From a virus (lineage: Duplodnaviria; Heunggongvirae; Uroviricota; Caudoviricetes), in the IMG/VR virus record IMGVR_UViG_2636416131_000001, positions 32,831 to 96,830 of that record: 64,000 nt of DNA. The stretch is one strand, 5' to 3'. Positions 6,638-58,995 of the stretch are shown here, piece by piece. Made by a program: the position numbers and the translations under genes. The notes below the pieces were generated by a model that did not search any database, was not told the origin of the DNA, and was given only the letters and a program-made list of their open reading frames with translations. The stretch's first letter is position 1. Each line of letters starts with the position of its first letter.

Positions 6638-7669
6638 ATGTCCAATTTACTGACCGTACACCAAAATTTGCCTGCATTACCGGTCGATGCAACGAGTGAT
6701 GAGGTTCGCAAGAACCTGATGGACATGTTCAGGGATCGCCAGGCGTTTTCTGAGCATACCTGGAAAATGCTTCTGTCCGTTTGCCGGTCGTGGGCGGCAT
6801 GGTGCAAGTTGAATAACCGGAAATGGTTTCCCGCAGAACCTGAAGATGTTCGCGATTATCTTCTATATCTTCAGGCGCGCGGTCTGGCAGTAAAAACTAT
6901 CCAGCAACATTTGGGCCAGCTAAATATGCTTCATCGTCGGTCCGGGCTGCCACGACCAAGTGACAGCAATGCTGTTTCACTGGTCATGCGACGGATCCGA
7001 AAAGAAAACGTTGATGCCGGTGAGCGTGCAAAACAGGCATTGGCGTTCGAACGCACTGATTTCGACCAGGTTCGTTCACTCATGGAAAATAGCGATCGCT
7101 GCCAGGATATACGTAATCTGGCATTTCTTGGGATTGCTTATAATACCCTGCTACGTATAGCAGAAATTGCCAGGATCAGGGTTAAAGATATCTCACGTAC
7201 TGACGGTGGGAGAATGTTAATCCATATTGGCAGAACGAAAACGCTGGTTAGCGCCGCAGGTGTAGAGAAGGCACTTAGCCTGGGGGTAACTAAACTGGTC
7301 GAGCGATGGATTTCTGTCTCTGGTGTAGCTGATGATCCTAATAACTACCTGTTTTGCCGGGTCAGAAAAAATGGTGTTGCCGCGCCATCTGCCACCAGCC
7401 AGCTATCAACTCGCGCCCTGGAAGGGATTTTTGAAGCAACTCATCGATTGATTTACGGCGCTAAGGATGACTCTGGTCAGAGATACCTGGCCTGGTCTGG
7501 ACACAGTGCCCGTGTCGGAGCCGCGCGAGATATGGCCCGCGCTGGAGTTTCAATACCGGAGATCATGCAAGCTGGTGGCTGGACCAATGTAAATATTGTC
7601 ATGAACTATATCCGTAACCTGGATAGTGAAACAGGGGCAATGGTGCGCCTGCTGGAAGATGGCGATTAG
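6638..7669 (+). CDS. cre: Cre tyrosine recombinase
   Basis: 343 aa, MSNLLTVHQNLPALPVDATSDEVRKNLMDMFRDRQAF...; matches recalled Cre; loxP 419 bp upstream. Confidence 0.98.
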   Translation: MSNLLTVHQNLPALPVDATSDEVRKNLMDMFRDRQAFSEHTWKMLLSVCRSWAAWCKLNNRKWFPAEPEDVRDYLLYLQARGLAVKTIQQHLGQLNMLHRRSGLPRPSDSNAVSLVMRRIRKENVDAGERAKQALAFERTDFDQVRSLMENSDRCQDIRNLAFLGIAYNTLLRIAEIARIRVKDISRTDGGRMLIHIGRTKTLVSAAGVEKALSLGVTKLVERWISVSGVADDPNNYLFCRVRKNGVAAPSATSQLSTRALEGIFEATHRLIYGAKDDSGQRYLAWSGHSARVGAARDMARAGVSIPEIMQAGGWTNVNIVMNYIRNLDSETGAMVRLLEDGD

Positions 7670-7719: not shown

Positions 7720-8031
7720 ATGAGAAAGGATTTCAACATCGACGGAAAATATGTAGTGCTGTCTGTAAGCACTAATATTCTGTCACCATCTGTCATTGTC
7801 ACCGTAAAGTTGAGCGATAGGATGCCTGATATCGACTCGATATCTGTTGCGTTCCCCGTTAAAAGCATGCGGAGTGCTGAACATTTTGTGATGAATGCAA
7901 CGGAGGAGGAAGCGCGGCGCGGGCTTACTAGAGTGATGGGGGAATTTGGCGAACTCCTGGGTAAGGTAAACAATGCCCTTTCAATCAGTTCAGCAAGGTC
8001 CAAAGCGTTAACAGCTTCCATGATGAAATAA
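7720..8031 (+). CDS. hypothetical protein in the cra position of the P1 gene order
   Basis: 103 aa ORF directly behind an operator-like site; no recognisable motifs. Confidence 0.45.
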   Translation: MRKDFNIDGKYVVLSVSTNILSPSVIVTVKLSDRMPDIDSISVAFPVKSMRSAEHFVMNATEEEARRGLTRVMGEFGELLGKVNNALSISSARSKALTASMMK

Positions 8032-8193: not shown

Positions 8194-8278
8194 GCAGTTT
8201 TTGTCAACTACGAAGACGTTGCCATTACTTCACTCCTTGACATCATTGGCGGCCATTAGGCCGCCTTTTTTTTGCCAT

Positions 8279-8839
8279 ATGAAAACAATCGAACAAAAAC
8301 TTGAACAGCGCCGCGAGTGGCAGAAGGCAGCCAGAGAACGAGCGATCGCTCGGCAACGGGAAAAGTTGGCTGACCCCGCCTGGCGAGAATCGCAATATCA
8401 GAAAATGCGGGATTCTATCGACCGCCGTATCGCTAAACAGAAAGAGCGCCCACCAGCCAGCAAAACGCGGAAAAGTGCGGTAAAAATAAAATCTCGTGGC
8501 TTGAAGGGGCGAACACCGACGGCGGAGGAACGGACCATCGCCAATGCTCTTGGCACTCTCCCCTGCATTGCCTGCTACATGCATGGAGTAATATCTGAAG
8601 AGGTGTCTCTGCACCATATCTCCGGTCGTACCGCGCCGGGTTGTCACAAAAAGCAATTGCCCCTTTGCAGATGGCACCACCAGCATGCAGCACCGGCTGA
8701 AGTAAGAGAAAAATACCCTTGGCTGGTCCCCGTTCATGCCGATGGTGTGGTTGGAGGCAAGAAAGAATTCACCTTGCTGAACAAGTCAGAGATGGAATTG
8801 CTGGCTGACGCCTATGAGATGGCAAACATCATGCACTAA
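8279..8839 (+). CDS. ref: Ref recombination enhancement function (HNH-type endonuclease)
   Basis: 186 aa from ATG 8279 (MKTIEQK...); Cys/His cluster CIACYMHG...HH...CHKK...CRWHH; C1 operators upstream; longer track ORF starts further 5'. Confidence 0.8.
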   Translation: MKTIEQKLEQRREWQKAARERAIARQREKLADPAWRESQYQKMRDSIDRRIAKQKERPPASKTRKSAVKIKSRGLKGRTPTAEERTIANALGTLPCIACYMHGVISEEVSLHHISGRTAPGCHKKQLPLCRWHHQHAAPAEVREKYPWLVPVHADGVVGGKKEFTLLNKSEMELLADAYEMANIMH

Positions 8840-9027
8840 TAAATATATTATTTTTAATCTTAAATGATTGACAACTGACAAGTGACTTGAGTCAGAATCA
8901 TCACACGCCCGGTACGGATGGATCCCTTTTCAAATATTCCATGGACGGCACAGTCTGAGTACCGGGCGCTACCTTCAGTTGTATTGCTAAGCCGCCGCTG
9001 GTGGCTTTTCTTTTTTGTAGGGGCGCT

Positions 9028-9669
9028 ATGGATAAGAAAATATGCGTTGTTTCAATGAGCGTCGGCAAACCGGCGTCAATGACTGCTGCATGGATCAACA
9101 ATGAGCTGATAATGGCTGAGCGGACCAGCTACCCTGAACGCCGCCGCGATATGGAACTCCAGCTGCTGCGCGAATTGCGAGAAAAAGAGGAAAAGGGTTT
9201 TATCGTGCTGGTGGAAGAGGAAAACAGCTTTATTACCGGTCGAGTTGGCCAGCGTGTAAGGTTGCGTGATCCCTTCATGAACGGCAGACCGGTACTGATT
9301 GAAGCAATGCAGATTTACAAGGAATTGGAACGCCAGAAAGCGATCAAGTTACCGCGCAAGGAATCCGGCAAATACATCCTTCACCAAAGCATCTTCGATT
9401 CCGAACACGATAAAAAAGGCGATGAATTTTTCAACATCAACTGGAGCGAAATAACGACAGAACATGTTCTGACGTTACTATGTTGCTTTGCGACGGAATA
9501 CAACAACGTTGCCAGCGCCGACTACATCAGGGCAATGGCTGGAGAAGTTGAGGCCCATCAGGAACCATCATTACTAAGTCCCCTGATTAACATAATTCGC
9601 GGAACTCAAACACTAACGCAAAAACAAGTGCCGCAAGGAGAATTAACAGGTAAACAGAACTATTTATAA
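9028..9669 (+). CDS. hypothetical protein (position fits P1 mat; unverified)
   Basis: ATG at 9028 in frame with track ORF 9001..9669; GC content like the phage core. Confidence 0.5.
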   Translation: MDKKICVVSMSVGKPASMTAAWINNELIMAERTSYPERRRDMELQLLRELREKEEKGFIVLVEEENSFITGRVGQRVRLRDPFMNGRPVLIEAMQIYKELERQKAIKLPRKESGKYILHQSIFDSEHDKKGDEFFNINWSEITTEHVLTLLCCFATEYNNVASADYIRAMAGEVEAHQEPSLLSPLINIIRGTQTLTQKQVPQGELTGKQNYL

Positions 9670-9690
9670 TAGTTACGTTAGGTAACATTA

Positions 9691-9717
9691 TGGGTATGTT
9701 TCATTTTCATACCCATT
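9691..9717 (+). terminator. terminator hairpin after 9028..9669
   Basis: atgggtatg-tttcatttt-catacccat 9 bp stem followed by T-rich tract. Confidence 0.5.
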
Positions 9718-9763
9718 GATTTCTAGCTTGATTTGTTATTATATGTAACAACACATTAATCAT

Positions 9764-10903
9764 TTGAACTGGATGTTAGTAATGGGCAGTGAAGTATATC
9801 AAAGCCAAAAATGCGAACTTAAATATTCGAAATCTCAAATAGAAAAAGCAGCCAGAAAAATTAGACATGGTTGTGAGGGCGCAGAGCGAGAAGAAGCAAT
9901 TAAAATGATTCAAAATTTCCGCGAGCTTCATTTATATCCATTGATGCTAATGAAAAATCATCTTGATAGGGCTGCAAAAAAAGTTGATAAAGAGAATAAG
10001 ATTATTGTTGCAAGACGCCTAAAAAGACTTAGCACAATAATTGATAAACTGGAGCGTCCAAGTCTTGACGGCGGCGCAACAAATAATGCAATAGCCCTTA
10101 CTAGAATGCAGGATATTGGCGGATGTAGAGCTATAGTTAGAAACATCGAACAACTAAAGAAACTAAAAGACCGACTAGTTAAAAGTCGCTCCAAGCATAA
10201 AATCTTAAAGGAATATGACTATTTAACTCCAAAGCCAAGCGGATATAGTGGCATTCACCTTGCATATAGTTGTTTTGATGAAGAAAACGGTAACAATCCG
10301 TGGAGTAAAACTAAAATCGAAGTACAACTAAGAACAGAACTCCAACATGCTTGGGCAACAAGTCTGGAGATAATAGATACACTTGAAAATATTAAGCTGA
10401 AAACTTCTAATGAAGGTCACCCTGAGTGGAGAAGATTTTTTTATCTTTCTGGATGCCTAGTTGCTCATGATGAAGGTGCCTGTATTCTTGATGATGAAAC
10501 CATCAAAAATTATCAAACAGAGCTTAAAACATTGGAGGAGGCTTTATCTGTTCGCTCAAAATTAAGTACATATACATTTGCAATGAAGCTGACATCAGAT
10601 GCAAACCTAAAGAAAAGCCTGCCCAAAAACCATAATGGATTCTTTTTGGTGAGGATGAGAAACGCCATAACAAAAAATGGCAAGGATACTGGAAAGTTTC
10701 TTGTTTCTGTGAAACCTTTTAGGAAAAAAGAATCGGAACAAGCCCTCCAGGAACTTAATAAGGATGATGCGGATCCTGAAGTATTAATTGCGGTGCTGCT
10801 TGCCACTAACAACATTAAATCTCTTAAAAAGGCTTATCCTAACTATTTTGGGTCAACAAATCAGTTCGGGAGATTCCTTAGCAGACACATTGATACTGTG
10901 TAA
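9764..10903 (+). CDS. fused toxSAS toxin-antitoxin, CapRel-like (RelA/SpoT-type nucleotidyltransferase domain + C-terminal sensor/antitoxin region)
   Basis: 379 aa; synthetase motifs RRLKRLSTIIDKLER, MQDIGGCRAIV, GYSGIHLAY, EVQLRTELQHAWATSLE; visibly AT-rich versus flanks; sits where P1 carries res/mod. Confidence 0.8.
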   Translation: MNWMLVMGSEVYQSQKCELKYSKSQIEKAARKIRHGCEGAEREEAIKMIQNFRELHLYPLMLMKNHLDRAAKKVDKENKIIVARRLKRLSTIIDKLERPSLDGGATNNAIALTRMQDIGGCRAIVRNIEQLKKLKDRLVKSRSKHKILKEYDYLTPKPSGYSGIHLAYSCFDEENGNNPWSKTKIEVQLRTELQHAWATSLEIIDTLENIKLKTSNEGHPEWRRFFYLSGCLVAHDEGACILDDETIKNYQTELKTLEEALSVRSKLSTYTFAMKLTSDANLKKSLPKNHNGFFLVRMRNAITKNGKDTGKFLVSVKPFRKKESEQALQELNKDDADPEVLIAVLLATNNIKSLKKAYPNYFGSTNQFGRFLSRHIDTV

Positions 10904-10905
10904 AT

Positions 10906-10933
10906 TCCTATGCCTGGCTTAGCCAGGCATAGC
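10906..10933. terminator. bidirectional terminator hairpin between the toxSAS gene and lxc
   Basis: ctatgcctggc-ttagc-caggcatag. Confidence 0.55.
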
Positions 10934-10940
10934 CAAAGAT

Positions 10941-11189
10941 TTAATCAGCATTCAGGAGCAATGCGTTATCTATGATGATCTGCTCCCATTCTTCGAATGC
11001 CCGGTCGCGGACGCCCTGGGGAACGCTGTTAGTTTTGAAATCGACGACCGTACGCCATTTCCCGTCCGGACGGTACATGCGCAGAGCTTTACTTCCCCCT
11101 TCCCTGCGCACCTCAACGTTATGCTTATCAGCAAACTCTTGTAATGCTCGTAGCGTCCCATGCTTTACTGTGTAGTATCGCTTTTTCAA
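10941..11189 (-). CDS. lxc: Lxc (Bof) co-repressor
   Basis: 82 aa ORF downstream of ulx/darB on the same strand; size and synteny as in P1. Confidence 0.75.
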   Translation of the reverse strand: MKKRYYTVKHGTLRALQEFADKHNVEVRREGGSKALRMYRPDGKWRTVVDFKTNSVPQGVRDRAFEEWEQIIIDNALLLNAD

Positions 11190-11626
11190 GTTTTCTCTCC
11201 AGCCTGTGCCAAGGCTTCAACTTCCAAATCGTAAGACTCAAACTCATAGTCCTGGTCGTCAACTTCTTCAGGCACTGGCAGTAAATGCCAGGCTGAGTAT
11301 ATCTGACCATTATCAAAACGCTCCTGGCTGTAGAGCGTCGCGGCTATGAGTGTTAGCGCCGGGCGGTCATAACGGTAAATTTTGCGAACGTCACGGTCAA
11401 CGAGACGACCGAAATTACCATAACCGCGCTCCAGTAATAATTTTTTAATTTCCGGCCAGTATGGACCATAGCTGCGGTACAGGCGGGGATTTTTCAGTAA
11501 TCGCCCGCGTAGCCCTGACAGGAAGAAATCAACGTATTCGTCTTCTGTCTTTCCTAACAACGCTGTACGGAGTACCGCCTCAAGATATGTTTTATTCGGT
11601 TTTATTGTATCAGATAGTGTGGCCAT
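11186..11626 (-). CDS. ulx: Ulx
   Basis: 146 aa; start overlaps... stop overlaps lxc start by 4 nt; synteny darB-ulx-lxc. Confidence 0.7.
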   Translation of the reverse strand: MATLSDTIKPNKTYLEAVLRTALLGKTEDEYVDFFLSGLRGRLLKNPRLYRSYGPYWPEIKKLLLERGYGNFGRLVDRDVRKIYRYDRPALTLIAATLYSQERFDNGQIYSAWHLLPVPEEVDDQDYEFESYDLEVEALAQAGEKT

Positions 11627-11659: not shown

Positions 11660-14600
11660 TTATGCGTATTGTTGGATGACGGCCAGAACGTCCGCCACGT
11701 TGTGTTTTGTCTCGATAATCCACCAGTTACCCGGGAAATCGCTGTTCTTCGCCTTCGCTGGCAGCCAGCGAGCGCCGAATTTCGCCTTGATTGCGTCTTT
11801 CGCACGGAAAAGAACGCCTTTCATGCCTGAGGCTTCCTGAAGCCCAAATACCTCGCCAGCGGCGAATTTTGGTGCGTACATCATCTTCAGGTCGGCGGTG
11901 GATACGCGATAATTCAGACCAAGAGACTGAGCTATGCTGGTGGCATCACCCTGTATTGATGATAACTCTTCTTGTTTCTCGTTTCTGGCGGCAATCTCTT
12001 CCTCCGTGATGTTGCCAAGGGCCAGGTTTATCCGATCAGCGTCGGCCTGTTTCTCTTCATCGGTGCGCCCGGCAAGAACCGTGTTAATTCTCTGCAATAT
12101 CTCCACATGATTCTTGCGCATGCTGAGCAATTCCGGCGTAACCTCGTTAAGATCCACCAGCCCAAGGATGGCAAGGTCGGAAAACATTGATACCAGGTTG
12201 TAGGTCATGCGATAGCTGAGTTGACCATAGGCTGATGGCAACTTCACCGCATCCATTTGATAGGCATCCATAAATTTAGAGCCGTCGTTTACGACATCCG
12301 CTATTGCAGGTGTGATTTTCCCTGTGGTGGCGGCCTCCCTGATTGCTGTTACCCACGATTGAGTCAGCGCGGCGACTGCATGATTCAGATTGGCTTCCCG
12401 TTCTGCTGCGATGCGCGCGCTTGCTGCGTCCATTGCCTGCTTGATCTCGGCTTTATTGCTGTAAATGCCAATGGTGCCAAACTGTGCTGTGGTGATCTCA
12501 TAATCTGACGCCCGGAACTCATTGGTACCGAAAATGGCATTGGTGACTTCAAGTTCAGAATCCCCGTTACGAGTAGCCCCCTGGCTTGTTTTCTCCGGCA
12601 TTCTGGCGATCGCATCCGCTATTTTCTCCTGAATTGCTTCAGGGGATAGCGTATCTCCGTATGACGCGATTACATCGCCATAATTGGAGCCAAACAGTTC
12701 AACCAGGAATGCTTCTGCCGAACGGATCTGGCGGTTATTCCCTTCCGACATCATACCAAGCACCCATTTTGCAATTGACGACTTCAGCGCGCCGTCACGG
12801 CGATCCGGGTAAACCGCATGCTTCAGTGGGTCCGTATAGGTACCAACAAAATCAATGCTATAGCCTGACTCTGTAGTCTGAACGCCGTATGAGTCAGTGA
12901 TTTTGATCATGCCGCGCTGCTGGAAACGGTAGAAATCGTCACAGGAAACGATGTCGTTAATCCCGGCGATGGAGACGCCACCACTGATTTTCTGCATAAC
13001 AGCATCTTCATCGGGAGTTACATCAACCTGTTTATCCAGCGTCTTCACATCCCAGTTACCCGATTTGGTGCCTTTGAAGGTAAAGATGATCTCCACGTCT
13101 GCGCGCTGGCTGTCGAAGTCCAGCGACTTAATGCGAACGATATCACCGGCACAATCATAGTATTGGCCTACACGCCATGAGCGATCGCCGATAACAAGGA
13201 ACTCATTCGCATGGTTAACCAGATCAGGATCAACATCCAGAATGCCTTTATTTATTGCATCCTCCACCAGCGGGCGCAGGCGTTTGATATCCGTCGCGGC
13301 CTTCTGAGTACGGTTCAATAATTTCTCATAGCGGGAGATGGCCTGAGAGATATTAGCCTTGCGCTGAATGGCGCTTTTCAACGACGCGCGATACTGTGCT
13401 AACAACATACGGTCTGTGTGATGGACGCTACCCCAGCGGGCTTTCCAGTCTGCGTTATCAGCTGCTTTGGCCATTACCGCCTGTTTGAATTTGGCGACGT
13501 CGGCGGTGGTCTTTTCAAGTTCCGCTTTGCTTCGCTCCAATTCAGCGGTAAGTACCTCCACATCCTCACCAGCTGCGTGCTGCGCCTTGATGTAGTTCTG
13601 AAGGTCGATAGTAGCCTGTTCTTTCTGGCGAGCGCGTTTCGCAGCTTTCGCCTTATCCATTTGAACCTGCATCATTGCCAGACGTTCGCCGTCATCCTTC
13701 GCGGTATACATCTGCATTTCGATCATATCGTTGGCGTCGGCGTTCTCCATTTCTGACTTATCTGAACGGAGGATATCGGAGATCCAGCCTGCTTTACGCT
13801 TCAGCGTCTTCAGTCGGTATTCATCGAAAGACCCCTTGCCGCAGTAGTAGTGAACGCGAACGCTTGCACGGTTGGAGCCAACTCGGGCACCGCGACCGTT
13901 TCGTTGCGCAATACTGGCTGGAGTCCATGGCAACGTCAGATGATGGATGTCAGTCGTTCCTCGATGCAGGTTGATACCCACCTCTGCCTTTTTGTTGCAG
14001 ATGATGATCGGAGTCCGGCCCTCCTGGAAGTCGGCTGCAATCTTTTCCAGACCGCCCAACGACATTTCATTTTGCTGCGCGATATAGGCGTCATACAGAG
14101 CCATTTGCTCGTTGTATTTCGCTATCTGTGCATCTGTTGGTTCATCCGGTAACTCTTTCGGCGGTTTAACCGCTTTCAGTTTCTTACCGGTTTTACCTGC
14201 CTCGGCAACCGTCTGAGCATTCAGTATCCCCACCTTTGAAGGTTCAAGGTTAAGAGCATTGCAGATAATGCGCTTGAGCTTCTGGTGCTGCGTTTTTTCA
14301 TCGGTGAAGATGATTTGCTTACCTTCCGGGAAAAACTCCTTCAGCGTGGCAATCAGCTTCGCGTATTTGGGCGTAACGGGGTGAGTTACGGTCTGTTCGT
14401 CAATGCCAAACCTGGCCAGGCGCTTATTCACTTCCTGCTCGAACGCTTCCGGAACCTGCAACTGAATAAACTCGCCCTTATCTATCAGGGAGTATTGCGA
14501 TTGCTGCGTGATTGAATCATCACTGTCGTCGTCTTCGCTGGTGGCTTGTTTAGGCAAACTGTCCGCCAGCTGCTGCACCGCATCGGCGTACTCCGGCAGG

Positions 14601-17600
14601 AAACGATAGGTGATCCGGCGATAGTACAGGTCCATGTCAGTACATACGCGGTCCATATCCCTGATTATTGAGAAGATCGGACGGGCTTTCTCGTGCTCAA
14701 TCACGCCGTCTTCATTGACCGAGGTCGTTACGCCATTGTTGGCTTTGGCCGCCGCTTCCGCCTGCTGACGCAATTCTTCATACGCCGCCAGTTGTTCTTC
14801 AGTAAGTGGTGCATCCTGCTGGTGTTCGTCCAGCTCCGGGATCTCCACGGTATCCTTAACGTCTTCCGCCGTTTTAAGCGTTACCCAGCGATGGAATATA
14901 CCGCGCAGCGCATCAAGGTTTTCAAAGCCCACCAGCGCCATTTTTTCTTCAACTTCACCGCTAATTTTCTGTACCGTTTCCAGCCTGGTCTTGCCGAAGA
15001 ATTTAACGAAGTCATCAGGACCGTAGATCCCCATGTTCTGCCAGTATTCCTTCGGCAGAACATGAGAAAGCATGTTGTATGCATCGATCGGGGTGTTAAC
15101 GACTGGCGTTGCAGTCAGGAGAACCGGCCCGCGCCCACCATTCTTTTTCATCAGGTACGCGTTTTTAATTGCCATATCTCGCGCCGATTGCGCCACCGCG
15201 CTGGTGGGCAGATAGGCCAGTTGTGACGCTTCGCGACCATTTTTATAGCTATTGCGGTAGTTGTGACCTTCGTCAGCGATCACACTATCGAAGCCCATAT
15301 CCTCAAAGTACGGATACTTCTCTGCTTTTTCGGTGCCGGTATCTGAATACTCCGACAATACCCGGCGACGCGCGGCCTCTTTGCGGTGGGAGTCGGAGTC
15401 CATTGCGCTGGCTACGCGTCCGGCGGCAACGAAGTCATAAAGCATATCCTGTGCATGCTCATCTACGGTGTCATCACGTAGCGGAATGCGGGCGTATTGT
15501 TCTTTGGTAAACACGACTGCACGGTAATTTGAGTGCGGGATCGCGTTCATCCGCGCCGTGATAGTGGCTTCATCTGCCAGCTTAAGAGCATCGCGCATAA
15601 CTGGAGTGCCATCAGTACCAAGAACAGGTTTACCGTTCTCATCGAGCACCTGCACCTGGCGAATCTGATCGCCATCCATCAGCACATCAAGACCGACGAA
15701 CAGGTAGTTACTGAATGCCTCTTCACTCAGGAATTCTTTTGCTTCGTAATACCAGTTTTCCAGCACTGATTTAGGCACTACATACGCAGTACGGGTGGAG
15801 CGACCGTTCTCATAGTTGAACGCCTCAAGCGCCAGCGCGGTCGTGGTTTTACCCAGCCCGGTGCCGAAGCCCAGGATGCCGCGCCCATCTTCGGACAGTC
15901 GGCGCACCTCGCTATTCTGGTAATCAAATGGCTGGCGCTTACCGCTTAATCCCTTCAACCCAAGCGGATCGCCAGAGTGTTCATACGGGATATTGCTATT
16001 GAACACATCGTTGTATTTAGCAACCAGCTCATCGTAGCGATCGTGCGTCTTGATCCACTTATTGAACTGGTCCTCAAGCAGTGCCATCTGCTCGCGGTAG
16101 CCGTTCGCCGTCGCGCTATCTTTGCCACCGATACGCGCACCATTGAGATACTTTTCCAGCTGTGCCGGGAACCCGGTCGCGTTTTCACCTGATTTACGGT
16201 CCCACTCGTAGCGGATCTCGCCTGTTTCTTTATCCTTACGCTGGACGACACCGTATCGGTGCCCGACGAACAGGCCATCACCACCGTGATAGGTGTCAGA
16301 AACCATTTCGTCGCCTTCCAGCTGCACTGACTGCACATAGCGCAGATCCGGATAGCCGTTTTCCTGCAAAAACTCCAGAATGACGGAACGGTCGAACCAA
16401 CGGCTATTGAGCTTAAAGCGGATATTCTCTGCTGGCGTCTTGATGCGCTTCTCTTCGATCGCTGCCAGCTGATTAAGGACGTTGTTCTTTACTGGACCGT
16501 CGGGGAGCGTGGCGAGGAATTCCTGTTTTGGAGCCACTATCTCGTTAATGTCGCCGCTGGTGGCGCGGGCGAACGGAACAATCCCGCCATACGGTGAAAC
16601 CGCAATGCCAGGGGTGCTGGCCAATAAATTAAGCAACTCGTCATCACTGGCTGGCAGTTCGCCGGTAAACGCAAGGCGGAAATCATCGAGCTGGATTGGA
16701 TCGCGAGTGAGATCACTGTAGAGATAACGCAGGGTGTCCTGATAGCTGGTGGAGTCATAACTGGCGCTGGAATCATGCGTAACCAGTTTTCCTGTCAGCT
16801 CGTCAGAAATAGTGCCATCCAGCTTAATTGCACCACGGAAAGCAAACCAGGCGCGCGCACCGCTCCCCGATAATTTCGCTATCGGACCGCGACCGGGGTT
16901 ACCAAAACGGTCAATCTCTGCCTGCAAACGGAATACCAGAGAAAGGCGCTGCTGTTCGATTTGTTCAGCACTATGCCCGGCGGCCTTCATGTCCTGATAT
17001 TCAATTAACATCCGGCCAATCATCGCCCCGCGATACAAGCGTTCACGGTATTTTTCAGGCTGGCTGTTAATCCAGTCCACCAGCTGCACCATATCGTCGC
17101 TGATTGATGTGGTGTACTTATCGCGGACATTTGCCATCTGGGTAAATGTCATGCCGAGACGGCCTTCTGTTGTAGTCAGGTTACGCTGAAGAGCCTCCCA
17201 GCTATCCGCGCCATAACTGGCAGCATCGATCTTAAGTTCCTTCCCTGCATCAGCTTCAATCCAGCGACCACCAGCATATTTTTGCCATACGCCATTAATC
17301 AGGCGCATTTCCCCTTCACCAACAACGTCTGCGGTCGGTGACGGTTCAGCCATATCGAGCAAAGACCAGTCGATACGGCTTTCGAAACGATGAATCAGCT
17401 TCGCTTTAAGAGCCTGGTTATCAATCTGACCGTCGGCACGAACCTCAATACGCCCCTGGAAGCCCTTTTCCTGGGTGCCATGAACAAACCGGCGGCCGTC
17501 CTTTTCAAACCACTTGCCAGAAATAAACGTTGGCCAAAGCACATTTGCCGATTCGAGAGTGCTTTCATCCACCAGGGGGATTTTCTCAGCCATCTCTGCC

Positions 17601-18427
17601 GGATGTTTGCGCATCAGCACCACATCAACAACTGTACTGGTCCCGTTTGCGTCAAAAGTACCGGTAGGCAAGCGGTGGGCACCAAGAAATTCAGCTTTCC
17701 GTGATAGGCGCAGGCGTAACCGTTTCATGTTTGAACCTGAAACAATGGACGGCGGCACAATCACACACATGAATCCGCCAGGTTTTATCTTGTCCAGCAT
17801 GCGGAGCATGAAGTAAGACCCCATGTCCGTTTCTTCTGCGTAAGGCTTATCGATGTTGCGTGTGTTATCACGACCGCCGAACGGAACGTTACCCACAACA
17901 TGGTCGAATGAATCGTTAGGCGTGTTTATAGCCAGCTGTTCGAACGGGGAAATCTGTACGCTGTCTTCCGGGTGTAACAACTGGTTTATACGACCGGAAA
18001 CACTGCTGATCTCAGTCGCGGTCATCACCGTACCAACCGGTTTTGTCTCATTAAAAACGCCGGTTCCCGCCGATGGTTCCAGAGTGTTACCTACGTCCGC
18101 GCCGTAGAGCTTCATGATCTCCCAGACACCTTCAGCGATAGGCTTTGGTGTGTAATATTCGGAGACGGACCCGCCAATGCCGCCTTCACCAGTGTACCCG
18201 GCCAGGATCTGGCGCTGTTCATCTGTCAGTGTCGCGCCGTCCACCAGCGAATTAAGCAAATCTATCGCCTTCTGATTCGCCTCCCGGCGCAGTCGGTCAT
18301 AGCTTTTGCCTTCCACCTTTTCCACGCCGTATTTAATCGGCGCTCGGTGAGATGTTATTGCCCTAATGTATTTCAATATTTCGCTGACACTTGAACAGCG
18401 AAACACACCAATAGATAGCTTGTTCAT
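11660..18427 (-). CDS. darB: DarB antirestriction protein (N6-adenine methyltransferase-like + SF2 helicase-like domains)
   Basis: 2255 aa; LEPSAGTGVF and GNVPFG methyltransferase-like motifs; GFGTGLGKTT Walker A and ADEGH box. Confidence 0.9.
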   Translation of the reverse strand: MNKLSIGVFRCSSVSEILKYIRAITSHRAPIKYGVEKVEGKSYDRLRREANQKAIDLLNSLVDGATLTDEQRQILAGYTGEGGIGGSVSEYYTPKPIAEGVWEIMKLYGADVGNTLEPSAGTGVFNETKPVGTVMTATEISSVSGRINQLLHPEDSVQISPFEQLAINTPNDSFDHVVGNVPFGGRDNTRNIDKPYAEETDMGSYFMLRMLDKIKPGGFMCVIVPPSIVSGSNMKRLRLRLSRKAEFLGAHRLPTGTFDANGTSTVVDVVLMRKHPAEMAEKIPLVDESTLESANVLWPTFISGKWFEKDGRRFVHGTQEKGFQGRIEVRADGQIDNQALKAKLIHRFESRIDWSLLDMAEPSPTADVVGEGEMRLINGVWQKYAGGRWIEADAGKELKIDAASYGADSWEALQRNLTTTEGRLGMTFTQMANVRDKYTTSISDDMVQLVDWINSQPEKYRERLYRGAMIGRMLIEYQDMKAAGHSAEQIEQQRLSLVFRLQAEIDRFGNPGRGPIAKLSGSGARAWFAFRGAIKLDGTISDELTGKLVTHDSSASYDSTSYQDTLRYLYSDLTRDPIQLDDFRLAFTGELPASDDELLNLLASTPGIAVSPYGGIVPFARATSGDINEIVAPKQEFLATLPDGPVKNNVLNQLAAIEEKRIKTPAENIRFKLNSRWFDRSVILEFLQENGYPDLRYVQSVQLEGDEMVSDTYHGGDGLFVGHRYGVVQRKDKETGEIRYEWDRKSGENATGFPAQLEKYLNGARIGGKDSATANGYREQMALLEDQFNKWIKTHDRYDELVAKYNDVFNSNIPYEHSGDPLGLKGLSGKRQPFDYQNSEVRRLSEDGRGILGFGTGLGKTTTALALEAFNYENGRSTRTAYVVPKSVLENWYYEAKEFLSEEAFSNYLFVGLDVLMDGDQIRQVQVLDENGKPVLGTDGTPVMRDALKLADEATITARMNAIPHSNYRAVVFTKEQYARIPLRDDTVDEHAQDMLYDFVAAGRVASAMDSDSHRKEAARRRVLSEYSDTGTEKAEKYPYFEDMGFDSVIADEGHNYRNSYKNGREASQLAYLPTSAVAQSARDMAIKNAYLMKKNGGRGPVLLTATPVVNTPIDAYNMLSHVLPKEYWQNMGIYGPDDFVKFFGKTRLETVQKISGEVEEKMALVGFENLDALRGIFHRWVTLKTAEDVKDTVEIPELDEHQQDAPLTEEQLAAYEELRQQAEAAAKANNGVTTSVNEDGVIEHEKARPIFSIIRDMDRVCTDMDLYYRRITYRFLPEYADAVQQLADSLPKQATSEDDDSDDSITQQSQYSLIDKGEFIQLQVPEAFEQEVNKRLARFGIDEQTVTHPVTPKYAKLIATLKEFFPEGKQIIFTDEKTQHQKLKRIICNALNLEPSKVGILNAQTVAEAGKTGKKLKAVKPPKELPDEPTDAQIAKYNEQMALYDAYIAQQNEMSLGGLEKIAADFQEGRTPIIICNKKAEVGINLHRGTTDIHHLTLPWTPASIAQRNGRGARVGSNRASVRVHYYCGKGSFDEYRLKTLKRKAGWISDILRSDKSEMENADANDMIEMQMYTAKDDGERLAMMQVQMDKAKAAKRARQKEQATIDLQNYIKAQHAAGEDVEVLTAELERSKAELEKTTADVAKFKQAVMAKAADNADWKARWGSVHHTDRMLLAQYRASLKSAIQRKANISQAISRYEKLLNRTQKAATDIKRLRPLVEDAINKGILDVDPDLVNHANEFLVIGDRSWRVGQYYDCAGDIVRIKSLDFDSQRADVEIIFTFKGTKSGNWDVKTLDKQVDVTPDEDAVMQKISGGVSIAGINDIVSCDDFYRFQQRGMIKITDSYGVQTTESGYSIDFVGTYTDPLKHAVYPDRRDGALKSSIAKWVLGMMSEGNNRQIRSAEAFLVELFGSNYGDVIASYGDTLSPEAIQEKIADAIARMPEKTSQGATRNGDSELEVTNAIFGTNEFRASDYEITTAQFGTIGIYSNKAEIKQAMDAASARIAAEREANLNHAVAALTQSWVTAIREAATTGKITPAIADVVNDGSKFMDAYQMDAVKLPSAYGQLSYRMTYNLVSMFSDLAILGLVDLNEVTPELLSMRKNHVEILQRINTVLAGRTDEEKQADADRINLALGNITEEEIAARNEKQEELSSIQGDATSIAQSLGLNYRVSTADLKMMYAPKFAAGEVFGLQEASGMKGVLFRAKDAIKAKFGARWLPAKAKNSDFPGNWWIIETKHNVADVLAVIQQYA

Positions 18428-24736: not shown

Positions 24737-27713
24737 TATTTAGCTCCTTTGCCACACCTAATAACAGTTCCAGCAATCCGTCACCATTCATCAGTGATGC
24801 GGCAGCGGCCTCTTTGTCATGATACAACTGAAGAGCCATAGAGAATACTTCCGTTGCTGACGTTTTGGAAATAGTCGGTGATTTCTGCCGAATTTTCCCG
24901 GTGTTACTTACTGAGGCTGGCGGGTATACCTTCGCCATATAAATATTACTCAATCGAGATCTGAAGCACCATTCAGGCTTGCCACGCCCACCGATATTAA
25001 CGAAAGATGGCTTATCCCCTTCAACATTGGCCTTCAGGAATGACCGGGCTTTCTCTAACAAACCAGGGTTACTGTACTCAAGATGATGACCCAGCTCGTG
25101 CCACAGTGCACTTGCATTTTCATCGTTCAAATTGACAGCAACAACACCATTAATATTTGCATATGCCCTTCCCTGGTGGTGAACCACCTTTGATAAGGTC
25201 GAAATTTTACCGCCGGTCAGGCGATAAATATCAGCAAGTTCCTTGCGCAGGTCTATCCCACCATTCTGTCCAGCGCGGGCTTCTTCCACTTCTTCCGTGA
25301 TAAAAGAGTCGGCCCACTCAAGAGCTTTTTCTTCAGATACGGATGAGTTGGCGATCGCACTGTTCATGGCAGATAACACTTTCTCGTGGACCGAACCCAT
25401 ACTTTGCTGATTCATTTGCCAGCGTGTCTGCGGGTTATATGAGAATCGCTTAAGTAGTTGGTCAAGATGCTCAAGTTCTTCTTCGCTGACATACTTTTTA
25501 GCCTCACCAATAATGCCGGGGAGAATATTGCCGTTAGGATTAAACGCTCGCGAAAGGAAGAGTTTCAGCGCCCCCATGCCCTCCGATGCTTCAATATCAC
25601 CAATAACACGGTTAACAATGGCCGCACTCTTCGGATTAGCATCCGCCAACGCTCTGGCTACGATTTGCAGGGACGATACGACCTCACGCTGCATATCAGT
25701 CCTGATCTCATCAATAAACTCTGGCGTTATGCCGTGCTCTTTAAGGATATCCCTGCCTTCCGCCGTTACCCCATCGATATCACCGACATGTTTATTAACC
25801 TGACTTTGCAATGCCTTAAATGCCCTCAGAATTCCACGGGCATCATCAGCTTTACTAACGGCCTTCCTGAATGCTGGCAAGAAGTCAGAGTTAACCTCAT
25901 TTTGTTGATCGGCCCACTGAATGGAGGCTTCTTTCATCTCGTCCAGAGTCAAATCACCCAACGCGGTATGGTCTGTGAATATGAGCGACAACCTCTGAAC
26001 CATTTCTGCCAATGGTGATGCCGAATGCGCCGCGCTAAGGAATGCTTTCACCCTGGTTGGGCGAATGGAAAACCAGTCAATAGCTGGTGGCATATCTCCG
26101 TTTTTTATCGCCTGCGCTATCTCGTCAAAGCCATCGCGCCCAAGGGAGGATGCGTGATTTAACAAGCCGCGAAGTAACGAATTGCTGATACCGAATAATC
26201 GGCACCATTTTTTCACGTCGGCAACAGGCATTCGAACAAAATGCGCAAGCACTTGTACAAGCTGTTCATCCTGGGGATCTGTACGGGAAAGCAGCCTGAT
26301 CAGATGAATAATGTCTTTGATGCCGGATGCCCGATGTAATAGCAAACTGGTATATGGAGCAACACCATTGTAACTACCGCCGGAAACGGACTCGAAAAGA
26401 CCGCCGGATATCCCTTGCATGCCTTCGTTTTCCAGTTCCTGAGACACCTGGCGAAGGATATCCTGTAACGACACATCACCACCGCCAAACATATCCCCCA
26501 GCGCCTGGCCCTGGTGCTGTAACTCATCATTGATACGTTGAGCCATCAACTTAAAGGCGGAGGCCATACGCTTCGCGCTACGGTTATTCGCGACGATGAA
26601 CAACGCGAGTGCTTTCACTTCCGGGGCCGTTTCGCTGAACATATCCCCCTGAGCAATAACATCGGTAATATGCTGGCCTGACTCCTTCGATTGCCTTACC
26701 AGGTCTACCGCATCTTTCAATGCCGCCAGCGCCTTTTTATCGAGGCTATCCGCTGTCTCAATGCCATCAACAATAGTTGTCACAGCCTGCTTGTGCGCTT
26801 CTCCTGATAAAGCCTGCATCTGGACAAAATCATTGGCTGCCGCATTAAGCGCCGTCAGAACATTACGCATGTCCGGATCAGGTTCTTCTGCAACCATCCT
26901 TACCAGGCGCGCATCCTTATATGCCTTGGCAAAGATCGCGTTTTGTATACGGTCTACAAGTTGCCGTGTTGGTCGCCCATCTTCAGTTACAAGGCCAGCC
27001 GCCTGTGTGGCACCAACTTGCGTCATAAATCCGCGAATAAACGCGTCATTACTGCGGCTAAGCAGATCTCCGCTTTCTGACGGGTTAAAAAGCGCCATCA
27101 TCGCCGGTGTTATGCTGTCGGCATCAACAAAAGCCTTTTCACTGGCTGCCATTTCCTGAAGATCAGAAATATTTGAGTCCTTGGCAAACTGAACGCGGTC
27201 AACCTTGGTTAACCGGCGGCGCACCAGTACCGGAGCCGTCATTGATTCAACCTTTTCAGGTCGTATGCCGAATTCGGTCGCATGATCAATCAGGTACTCA
27301 CGATACCGATCCGCATTGCCGTCCTGATAGGCTTTGATGATCCCCATGGTCCGTCCATTACCTGACTCAACGGCATTGTCCTCACCAATTATCGGCGCAC
27401 CATGGCTGGATAAACCGGAATCAGTAAGCTGAGCAGGCCGCAAATCTTTGGATATCTGGTTAACCTGAAGAAGGCTGGATGCGCGGGTCCGGTCGCGCGG
27501 CTGAAGTTCCTGGGGATAGTCAGGATTAATTTTCCCATCCAGAGTATTGGATACCAAAAGAGCTGAGGCATCGACGATATCAAACGCTGTTTTTACCTCG
27601 TCTCCCTTCGCTGTCACCACATACGAAACCCGCCCATAACCGGGCAGGTTCTTTAGCAGCTCGATCAGCGTTTCTATGCTGGTGGCCATTACCACCTGAT
27701 CGCTTAAGCTCAT
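24726..27713 (-). CDS. ddrB: DdrB, dar operon large protein
   Basis: 995 aa; synteny darA-ddrA-ddrB. Confidence 0.75.
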   Translation of the reverse strand: MSLSDQVVMATSIETLIELLKNLPGYGRVSYVVTAKGDEVKTAFDIVDASALLVSNTLDGKINPDYPQELQPRDRTRASSLLQVNQISKDLRPAQLTDSGLSSHGAPIIGEDNAVESGNGRTMGIIKAYQDGNADRYREYLIDHATEFGIRPEKVESMTAPVLVRRRLTKVDRVQFAKDSNISDLQEMAASEKAFVDADSITPAMMALFNPSESGDLLSRSNDAFIRGFMTQVGATQAAGLVTEDGRPTRQLVDRIQNAIFAKAYKDARLVRMVAEEPDPDMRNVLTALNAAANDFVQMQALSGEAHKQAVTTIVDGIETADSLDKKALAALKDAVDLVRQSKESGQHITDVIAQGDMFSETAPEVKALALFIVANNRSAKRMASAFKLMAQRINDELQHQGQALGDMFGGGDVSLQDILRQVSQELENEGMQGISGGLFESVSGGSYNGVAPYTSLLLHRASGIKDIIHLIRLLSRTDPQDEQLVQVLAHFVRMPVADVKKWCRLFGISNSLLRGLLNHASSLGRDGFDEIAQAIKNGDMPPAIDWFSIRPTRVKAFLSAAHSASPLAEMVQRLSLIFTDHTALGDLTLDEMKEASIQWADQQNEVNSDFLPAFRKAVSKADDARGILRAFKALQSQVNKHVGDIDGVTAEGRDILKEHGITPEFIDEIRTDMQREVVSSLQIVARALADANPKSAAIVNRVIGDIEASEGMGALKLFLSRAFNPNGNILPGIIGEAKKYVSEEELEHLDQLLKRFSYNPQTRWQMNQQSMGSVHEKVLSAMNSAIANSSVSEEKALEWADSFITEEVEEARAGQNGGIDLRKELADIYRLTGGKISTLSKVVHHQGRAYANINGVVAVNLNDENASALWHELGHHLEYSNPGLLEKARSFLKANVEGDKPSFVNIGGRGKPEWCFRSRLSNIYMAKVYPPASVSNTGKIRQKSPTISKTSATEVFSMALQLYHDKEAAAASLMNGDGLLELLLGVAKELNNAD

Positions 27714-27725
27714 CCCTGTTACGCC

Positions 27726-28091
27726 TTATGCTGCCTCTTTAATGTTGGCGGCTATCCATGCCGCCGTGTGCTGTTTAACCTGGTCCAGGTCGATGTATGT
27801 GCCAACATATTGACTCAAATCCTGCAAGGTACCGATAAATGCATCGGTGCTCTGATCGACGAATTTATCAGCCAGGAAATCAGCAACCAGTTTTGGCACA
27901 CCATCATGTACCGAAGGTTGTTTTTCCTCGCCACTACTGCCGCCGGACACACCGTACCCCATCTGTTGCATGATCTGGTCAATTTCATCGCTGATATCCA
28001 GCAACTCCATGCCACTCGCGGTAGCCGCTTTGGACATCAAAGCATCCAACTTATCGCTGAGATCCATTAACTCAATAGCTGATAGTGTCAT
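27726..28091 (-). CDS. ddrA: DdrA
   Basis: 121 aa acidic protein between darA and ddrB. Confidence 0.65.
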   Translation of the reverse strand: MTLSAIELMDLSDKLDALMSKAATASGMELLDISDEIDQIMQQMGYGVSGGSSGEEKQPSVHDGVPKLVADFLADKFVDQSTDAFIGTLQDLSQYVGTYIDLDQVKQHTAAWIAANIKEAA

Positions 28092-57288: not shown

Positions 57289-58995
57289 TTACTCAGAGTC
57301 ACCGGCATCAATCGTGTCGCCGCTTATGAAGTTAAGCCCGCCTTTTTTGGCCATTGTCAGCGTTACACGAGTGAAGTAATCAGCGCCGTTGCGTGGGTGC
57401 ATATCGTTGATAGCCGAACCCCACAGCGTGGTACGGTTGACCAGCGCCGGAGTGGTCGGATGCTGGAACGGGATGGCCGGGACAGCATCACCAGTCACGA
57501 AGCCTGCTTTACCCGGATTTTCATCACGGACGTAGCACAGCACATCCATCGAGCTGAACTGAATGTTCTCTGTCGTTAAGTTCTTACAAATACCAGCAGG
57601 TACTTCGTACACTTTCACGTTACCGAACAGGGTACCGATGAAGTGAACATACGGAGTCTGGATATAGTCTTCGGCTGGCTGGAAGAAATCCTTCGGCAAC
57701 TGTTTGAAGAAAGATGCTGCATCAGCACCAGCAAACATCCCCATCGCACCAGAAGATTTAACGCGCTCAATAATGTCGCGATATACAGTCTGGAATTTGC
57801 CACGAATGATGGTTGCCCATACATCAAAGGACTGGTTAACCGGCAGAGCGATGTCAAAGGTGTCGGTCGCAAGAGTACGCCAGATCATGATGCGAAGACG
57901 CAGCATATCCTGTTCATGAGACAGGTATTCCTTCAGGGTGCGGAACTGTAGGGAACCCAGGTCCAGACCAAATTCACGCTGTGCTTCATACGCCGCCTGT
58001 ACCGTGTGCTCAGCCGCGATAACGAACTGGCTTGGGAACAGGGTGTATTTCTTCATTTCGTGGTTGATCAGCGGGATCAGCTCAGGAGCGGCTTCAATAT
58101 TGATTTCCGTCTCAATTGCGATCTCAGTGCCTTTATCCGGCGCTTTGGAGAACGACAGGGCAATCTGACCAATGTTGTAGTTCAGAGAGCAGGTAACAGT
58201 GATTTGCTCACCAGCAGCATTAGTAAACGAGTGAAGTAGGCTGCCGGAACCGTTATCAACAACAGACTTAATACGGTTAACGTAGATGTTAGTACGACCT
58301 TTTCGGATTGGTACATTCTGGCCTTCGAAGTCTTCCATCTTGAAGGTTGCGGTTTTGCTGGTGCCATCGGAGCTTGCCACCAGCACATAGCGGCGGCGTA
58401 ACTGGCTGTACACCCCGACGGATTGCATGTCCAGAACATCACCAGCAGCATAAGAACCAAAAGAGGAACCTGCCACGTTAAAGACTTCATAGATGTCTGA
58501 CTGGTCACGCGTAACCGGAATGAAGGTACACGCATCAGCGGTAGCGGCCCCCAACTGAACAGGCAGGATCATCGCGAGGAATAAAGGCAGACGCATAACA
58601 CCGTCAGAAACGCTCATCATCTCTGCTGCGACGGATTCCAGCATCGCTTTATTAGTGGCATCCATGCTATTGCGGGTGGACTCAATCAGGCAGTTTTCCA
58701 GCGTCTGGTGGCAGGAGGCCAGAATTTCCGGACGCGGCATAGATTTATGTGCTGCGGCGTAGTCAGCCAGTGCACTTGCCCACGCTGTAGCGATTTGAGC
58801 GGTGGCATTATCAGAGATACCCGCAAAAACCGGGTCTTTACGTGCAGCTTCAAGGATAGATGCGGCACGCGCGGCATCATCTTTAATGAATTGGTTATCA
58901 GTACCGAACTGCGCAGTGCTTGCCCAGCCAAGCACAGCTTTAGAGCGTTTTGCGATATCTGCAATACGATTCTGGTATTCGCGTAAGTTACTCAA
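57289..58995 (-). CDS. major head protein candidate (gene 23 position)
   Basis: track ORF has no ATG; likely TTG start at 58995 (MSNLREYQ...) preceded by AAGGAAG; adjacent to parB as in P1. Confidence 0.55.
   Translation of the reverse strand: MSNLREYQNRIADIAKRSKAVLGWASTAQFGTDNQFIKDDAARAASILEAARKDPVFAGISDNATAQIATAWASALADYAAAHKSMPRPEILASCHQTLENCLIESTRNSMDATNKAMLESVAAEMMSVSDGVMRLPLFLAMILPVQLGAATADACTFIPVTRDQSDIYEVFNVAGSSFGSYAAGDVLDMQSVGVYSQLRRRYVLVASSDGTSKTATFKMEDFEGQNVPIRKGRTNIYVNRIKSVVDNGSGSLLHSFTNAAGEQITVTCSLNYNIGQIALSFSKAPDKGTEIAIETEINIEAAPELIPLINHEMKKYTLFPSQFVIAAEHTVQAAYEAQREFGLDLGSLQFRTLKEYLSHEQDMLRLRIMIWRTLATDTFDIALPVNQSFDVWATIIRGKFQTVYRDIIERVKSSGAMGMFAGADAASFFKQLPKDFFQPAEDYIQTPYVHFIGTLFGNVKVYEVPAGICKNLTTENIQFSSMDVLCYVRDENPGKAGFVTGDAVPAIPFQHPTTPALVNRTTLWGSAINDMHPRNGADYFTRVTLTMAKKGGLNFISGDTIDAGDSE

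Follow-up and report, generated by a model that had tools for sequence, protein, structure and literature searches.

A gene encoding a protein identical to CapRel-SJ46 in the mat–lxc interval of a P1-like phage-plasmid

Introduction

The already known family of fused CapRel proteins has as its type member CapRel-SJ46 of Salmonella phage SJ46, the structure of which (PDB 7ZTB) was reported by Zhang et al. in Nature in 2022 under the title 'Direct activation of a bacterial innate immune system by a viral capsid protein' (data-availability statement, PMC9712102). The structure of its complex with Gp54 of Bas11 (9ERV) followed in Nature in 2024 (data-availability statement, PMC11578894). The N-terminal fragment of CapRel-SJ46 is toxic when produced alone, and the C-terminal fragment rescues the cells in trans (PMC9712102, Fig. 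1b). Expressed from its native promoter, CapRel-SJ46 cuts the efficiency of plating of T2, T4, T6, RB69, and SECΦ27 10- to 1,000-fold, and the Y155A substitution abolishes this defence (PMC9712102). Protection is limited to low multiplicities of infection, a sign of abortive infection (PMC9712102).

Gp57 of SECΦ27, the major capsid protein, is required for, and suffices for, the activation of CapRel-SJ46, to which it binds directly, and phage mutants that escape carry L114P or I115F in Gp57 (PMC9712102). Once activated, the enzyme pyrophosphorylates tRNAs in vitro and inhibits translation (PMC9712102, Fig. 3i-k); the modified site is the 3' end of the tRNAs (PMC11578894). CapRel-SJ46 also responds to Gp54 of Bas11, a trigger unrelated to Gp57 that binds to an overlapping surface of the protein (PMC11578894), and the published model of activation does not involve proteolysis of the antitoxin.

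In the analysis described here, a gene in a window of 64,000 nucleotides from a tailed-phage genome, which an initial annotation had assigned to the CapRel-type toxSAS toxin–antitoxins on sequence motifs, is compared with these systems.

Identity and Limits of the Gene

The open reading frame listed by the program at 9764..10903 on the plus strand, 379 aa long, is real and is the single ORF between mat and lxc; however, its first codon is a TTG that lies in frame 18 nt upstream of an ATG at 9782, and the latter is the start both of the CDS in the SJ46 GenBank record and of the crystallised protein. Since the protein of known structure and the SJ46 CDS begin at that ATG, the capRel gene is placed at 9782..10903 (+), with 373 codons followed by a stop. 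As the initial annotation had noted, the gene is AT-rich, the ORF having a GC content of 36.9% versus 47.9% for the whole window.

A phmmer search against the PDB aligned the product with 7ZTB_A over 373 of 373 identical residues (E=1.6e-250) and with 9ERV_A over 372 of 372, which bears out the reading as a CapRel-type fused toxSAS. At the DNA level, window positions 9600-11000 are 99.9% identical to phage SJ46 (KU760857), the sole difference over 1401 nt being a synonymous one at 9817 (A here, G in SJ46), and several P1-like plasmids of E. coli share the segment at 100% identity. The SJ46 record holds a CDS of the same limits, J46_0058 (AMR59976.1), which is labelled 'RelA/SpoT family protein' and located between the 'maturation control protein' and lxc. 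The protein is also matched over its full length by the PADLOC family PDC-S33 (5e-87) and by phrog_4773 (1e-144). The gene almost certainly encodes CapRel-SJ46, a toxSAS toxin–antitoxin fused in a single polypeptide, so that a P1-like phage-plasmid carries an anti-phage abortive-infection system; nothing in the analysis contradicts this identification.

Domain Architecture and Functional Residues

The four motifs from which the RelA/SpoT signature had been recognised, RRLKRLSTIIDKLER, DIGGCRAIV, GYSGIHLAY, and EVQLRTELQHAWATSLE, are all present in the translation, and the similarity is recovered by a profile search, in which Pfam PF04607 (RelA_SpoT) matches residues 85-199 of the 379-aa ORF with E=3.1e-13 and a score of 50.4 bits (cut-off 27). 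In the numbering of the 373-aa protein, this match covers residues 79-193 and marks the core of the toxSYNTH domain, a RelA/SpoT nucleotidyl/pyrophosphotransferase domain encoded at 10016..10360 (+). The core contains R79 and R116, which coordinate ATP/adenine in CapRel-SJ46, and Y155, the catalytic tyrosine of the G-loop (PMC9712102); a script places the Y155 codon at 10244-10246.

The C-terminal antitoxin and sensor region, which comprises anchors and the pseudo-zinc-finger domain (pseudo-ZFD), is encoded at 10499..10900 (+), corresponding to residues of about 240-373 according to the hydrogen–deuterium exchange (HDX) data and the structure description in PMC9712102. The expectation of a C-terminal sensor of some 150 aa devoid of enzyme motifs held in that the Pfam search of the ORF found no match beyond residue 199, but the length required adjustment to about 130 aa, since the HDX-protected regions of CapRel-SJ46 are residues 240-268 and 288-366 (PMC9712102). 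The trigger-binding residues L280 and L307 are present in this region, and the YxxY neutralisation motif is found as YPNY at residues 352-355 (10835-10846), each located by script. The pseudo-ZFD antitoxin is contained in the same ORF as the toxin, exactly as in the crystallised protein. Sequence identity, domain content, the published functional residues, and genomic context are observations made on this gene itself.

The GenBank and RefSeq labels 'GTP pyrophosphokinase' and '(p)ppGpp synthetase' would instead make the gene an ordinary small alarmone synthetase that tunes the stringent response of the host, and they are echoed by weak matches to the structures of RelQ, RelP, and YjbM (E=1e-7 to 2e-4) and by a match to the NCBIfam model GTPPhKinYjbM (NF053588). 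The score of the latter, however, is 39.4 bits versus an equivalog cut-off of 320, the protein possesses an autoinhibitory C-terminal domain of roughly 130 aa that housekeeping small alarmone synthetases do not have, and the identical protein, once activated, has been shown to modify tRNAs and to stop translation. An alarmone synthetase is therefore given a negligible chance, and the gene is treated as CapRel-SJ46 in what follows.

Proposed Mechanism

Toxicity, trigger, biochemistry, and structure are taken from the literature on the identical protein; indeed, N-terminal toxicity with C-terminal rescue, a phage panel, and capsid escape mutants are already published for this exact protein. In the mechanism that would follow for the present element, the C-terminal pseudo-zinc-finger domain would be folded back on the N-terminal RelA/SpoT-type toxSYNTH domain in the uninfected cell, and in this closed state, as described for CapRel-SJ46, the YxxY motif would block the ATP-binding site. 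Upon infection by a sensitive phage, a newly made phage protein, either a major capsid protein (Gp57 of SECΦ27 or its homologues in Bas5 and Bas8) or the small Gp54 of Bas11, would bind directly to the C-terminal domain and keep the enzyme open. The open enzyme would then move pyrophosphate from ATP onto tRNAs, translation would halt, and few or no progeny would be released from the infected cell.

Candidate Promoter and Flanking Hairpins

A consensus scan located a sigma-70 promoter-like site, TTAACA-16-TATAAT, matching at 11 of 12 positions, at 9643..9670 (+), where it overlaps the stop codon of mat. Its perfect -10 element (TATAAT) has no counterpart at the same position in RCS47, P1, or 673R5, and the junction of the cassette across the mat stop codon may therefore create a capRel promoter. 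A fragment of 100-200 bp upstream of the gene gave native expression of CapRel-SJ46 (PMC9712102), and the promoter-like site lies inside that distance from capRel. Since the 182 nt upstream of capRel are identical to those of SJ46, the 'native promoter' fragment of that study is present here as well. The site at 9643-9670 is accordingly a candidate for the native capRel promoter, from which, we infer, the gene would be expressed in this element.

Two terminator hairpins had been proposed to bracket the gene, and stable stems do exist on both sides; the label 'terminator', however, is only plausible, as neither hairpin was called in a scan for terminator-like structures, neither having a proper T-run. 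The upstream hairpin, found by a repeat search at 9690..9716 (+) in the leader between mat and capRel, has a 9-bp stem, ATGGGTATG/CATACCCAT, and a 9-nt loop; its folding energy is -13.5 kcal/mol (z=-2.5), and the 673R5 allele lacks a conserved counterpart. The downstream element, likewise from the repeat search, is a perfect palindrome of 12 bp, CTATGCCTGGCT/AGCCAGGCATAG, at 10908..10932, where capRel and lxc converge; it folds with about -20 kcal/mol whichever strand is taken (z=-4.0 on the plus and -3.4 on the minus strand), and its role may be to stop transcription from both sides or to stabilise transcripts. When positions 9400-11300 were searched with Rfam (E<=1) for antisense RNAs or a structured leader, no family matched.

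The mat–lxc Interval as a Defence Slot

The gene is embedded in a P1-type backbone, in which cre (6638..7669), c8 (7720..8031), ref (8201..8839; Pfam RecA_dep_nuc, 1e-49), and mat (9028..9669) precede it, and lxc (10941..11189, minus strand), ulx (11186..11626, minus strand; 'Ulx-like anti-restriction' in PHROGs), and darB (11660..18427, minus strand) follow it, in agreement with the gene order first described for this locus. The darB gene forms one ORF of 2255 aa in the window, whereas the SJ46 record annotates it as two CDSs. Homology of the backbone to P1, RCS47, and 673R5 stops just past the mat stop codon and restarts roughly 10 nt short of the lxc stop codon, which delimits a low-GC accessory cassette at 9670..10940 (GC 36.6% versus 47.9% for the window).

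The content of this interval varies among related elements. P1 (NC_005856) carries the EcoP1I res and mod genes there (L002:2716-9998), as the initial annotation had stated; however, the IS1 that it placed beside them is absent, no IS1 being annotated in the first 12 kb of the P1 reference, including the mat–lxc interval, and the insertion sequence present is an IS5 within mod, representing the laboratory allele mod749::IS5. The slot is empty in RCS47, where about 40 bp separate mat from lxc (L004:2826-3755), and in vB_EcoM-673R5 (ON470615.2) it is occupied by a diverged CapRel allele (L005:5847-6990). According to a 2025 preprint, the defence cargo of P1-like phage-plasmids comprises CapRel, type III restriction–modification, dGTPase, and PrrC. 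The mat–lxc interval of P1-like elements is an exchangeable slot for defence cargo.

This distribution also bears on the function of capRel, which as a toxin–antitoxin on a low-copy plasmid prophage could chiefly serve addiction, i.e., stabilise the phage-plasmid by post-segregational killing, with phage defence as a side effect. Low-copy plasmid prophages commonly carry addiction modules. Nevertheless, the SJ46 allele is found in only 21 of 596 PLSDB plasmid records and 14 of 577 complete E. coli genomes that match window positions 9600-11000, most of them through the lxc-side flank only; with so few matching records carrying the gene and the slot of RCS47 empty, capRel is dispensable for maintenance. 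Moreover, toxin and antitoxin form one polypeptide, in which differential decay cannot arise simply, and activation in the published model requires no degradation of the antitoxin. Addiction as the main role is thus considered very improbable, and phage defence by abortive infection is retained as the function of the gene.

The Resident Capsid Gene and Self-Sensing

The capsid gene of the resident phage had been placed at 57289..58995, and this assignment stands: the gene, on the minus strand, encodes a gp23 homologue that is 99.6% identical to gp23 of P1, is annotated as the major head or capsid protein in RCS47 and JL22, and adjoins the tail sheath gene. Database labels for this protein are inconsistent or wrong, since it appears as 'putative baseplate protein' in SJ46 records, as 'mobile element protein' in three P1-type records, and as 'unknown function' in PHROGs (phrog_1014).

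For comparison with the known capsid trigger, Gp57 was located in the unannotated SECΦ27 genome (LT961732) as an ORF of 323 aa at 27099..28070, in which F113-L114-I115 occur as published and Pfam Major_capside is matched at 3e-53. BLASTP of the resident gp23 against SECΦ27 Gp57 gave E=2 and hence no detectable similarity, so that the hint in the initial annotation that the resident capsid gene might matter to CapRel finds no support in the sequence. The text of PMC9712102 is silent on P1 within its panel of 12 phages. Given the lack of detectable similarity to SECΦ27 Gp57, the resident gp23 would, on the simplest reading, escape sensing by CapRel.

Self-sensing of the resident phage is nonetheless conceivable from the sequence, since CapRel-SJ46 senses two unrelated proteins; that CapRel senses its own phage, or that a dedicated self-immunity or expression switch operates during lytic growth, is regarded as unlikely. 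Such a switch might be formed by the leader hairpin and the promoter-like site that overlaps the end of mat. If true, a self-immunity or expression mechanism would add a new regulatory layer to a known system.

Significance

As a discovery, the gene is of little value, considering that the structure of its product has been solved both alone and with Gp54 of Bas11, and that two Nature papers address its trigger and mechanism. The analysis validates the recognition of a toxSAS protein from motifs in raw sequence, corrects the database labels of capRel and gp23, and documents the mat–lxc interval as an exchangeable defence slot in P1-like elements. In PADLOC-DB v2.0.0, the capRel protein is known only as the candidate family PDC-S33. 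This label, together with '(p)ppGpp synthetase' and 'GTP pyrophosphokinase', is behind the published tRNA-pyrophosphorylating function.

Comparison with Known Systems

The closest system is CapRel-SJ46 of Salmonella phage SJ46 itself; the present locus encodes the same protein within the same CDS limits, is likewise flanked by mat and lxc, and is preceded by the same 182 nt. The two elements differ in ref, the 3' end of which is truncated in SJ46 by a Tn1721-type tnpR/tnpA insertion, while ref is intact in the window (window 8700-8840 compared with L001:836-4400 of SJ46). The possibility that the window represents SJ46 was ruled out by the absence of this insertion, and the best 15-kb matches of the window are to E. 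coli plasmids, at 99.1-99.3%. The window derives from a related P1-like phage-plasmid, and given this difference at ref, the regulatory context could differ slightly from that of SJ46.

CapRel-Ebc of Enterobacter chengduensis shares the fused toxSYNTH and pseudo-ZFD architecture and the YxxY motif; its overall identity of 70% falls to 47% in the C-terminal region, and it defends against T7 and not against SECΦ27 (PMC9712102). The 673R5 allele likewise has the same fused architecture and YxxY motif and occupies the same mat–lxc slot, with about 74% nucleotide identity to capRel and amino acid identities of 80% in the N-terminal and 71% in the C-terminal part. In the deposited record, this allele contains two frameshifts and is consequently annotated as two ORFs, with YPNY kept in another frame; given that this record also splits mat, the frameshifts are probably assembly indels.

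Among the two-gene systems, PhRel/ATphRel of mycobacteriophage Phrann has a homologous toxSAS toxin and an antitoxin homologous to CapRel's C-terminal part, while the bicistronic FaRel2 and PhRel2 share the homologous toxin domain and also pyrophosphorylate tRNA; unlike in CapRel, toxin and antitoxin are encoded by separate genes in all three, the likeness being drawn from PMC9712102. RelQ, RelP, and YjbM (PDB 5DEC, 2BE3, and 6EWZ) share the RelA/SpoT synthetase fold, as reflected in the weak matches reported above and in the superposition of toxSYNTH on RelQ 5DEC (PMC9712102), but they have no fused antitoxin and use GDP/GTP as substrate, whereas CapRel uses tRNA. Finally, the EcoP1I type III res/mod genes of P1 are analogous to capRel in that they occupy the same mat–lxc slot and are likewise anti-phage cargo; their proteins and mechanism are unrelated to those of CapRel, and the insert measures about 6 kb (more with IS5) versus 1.3 kb in the present element.
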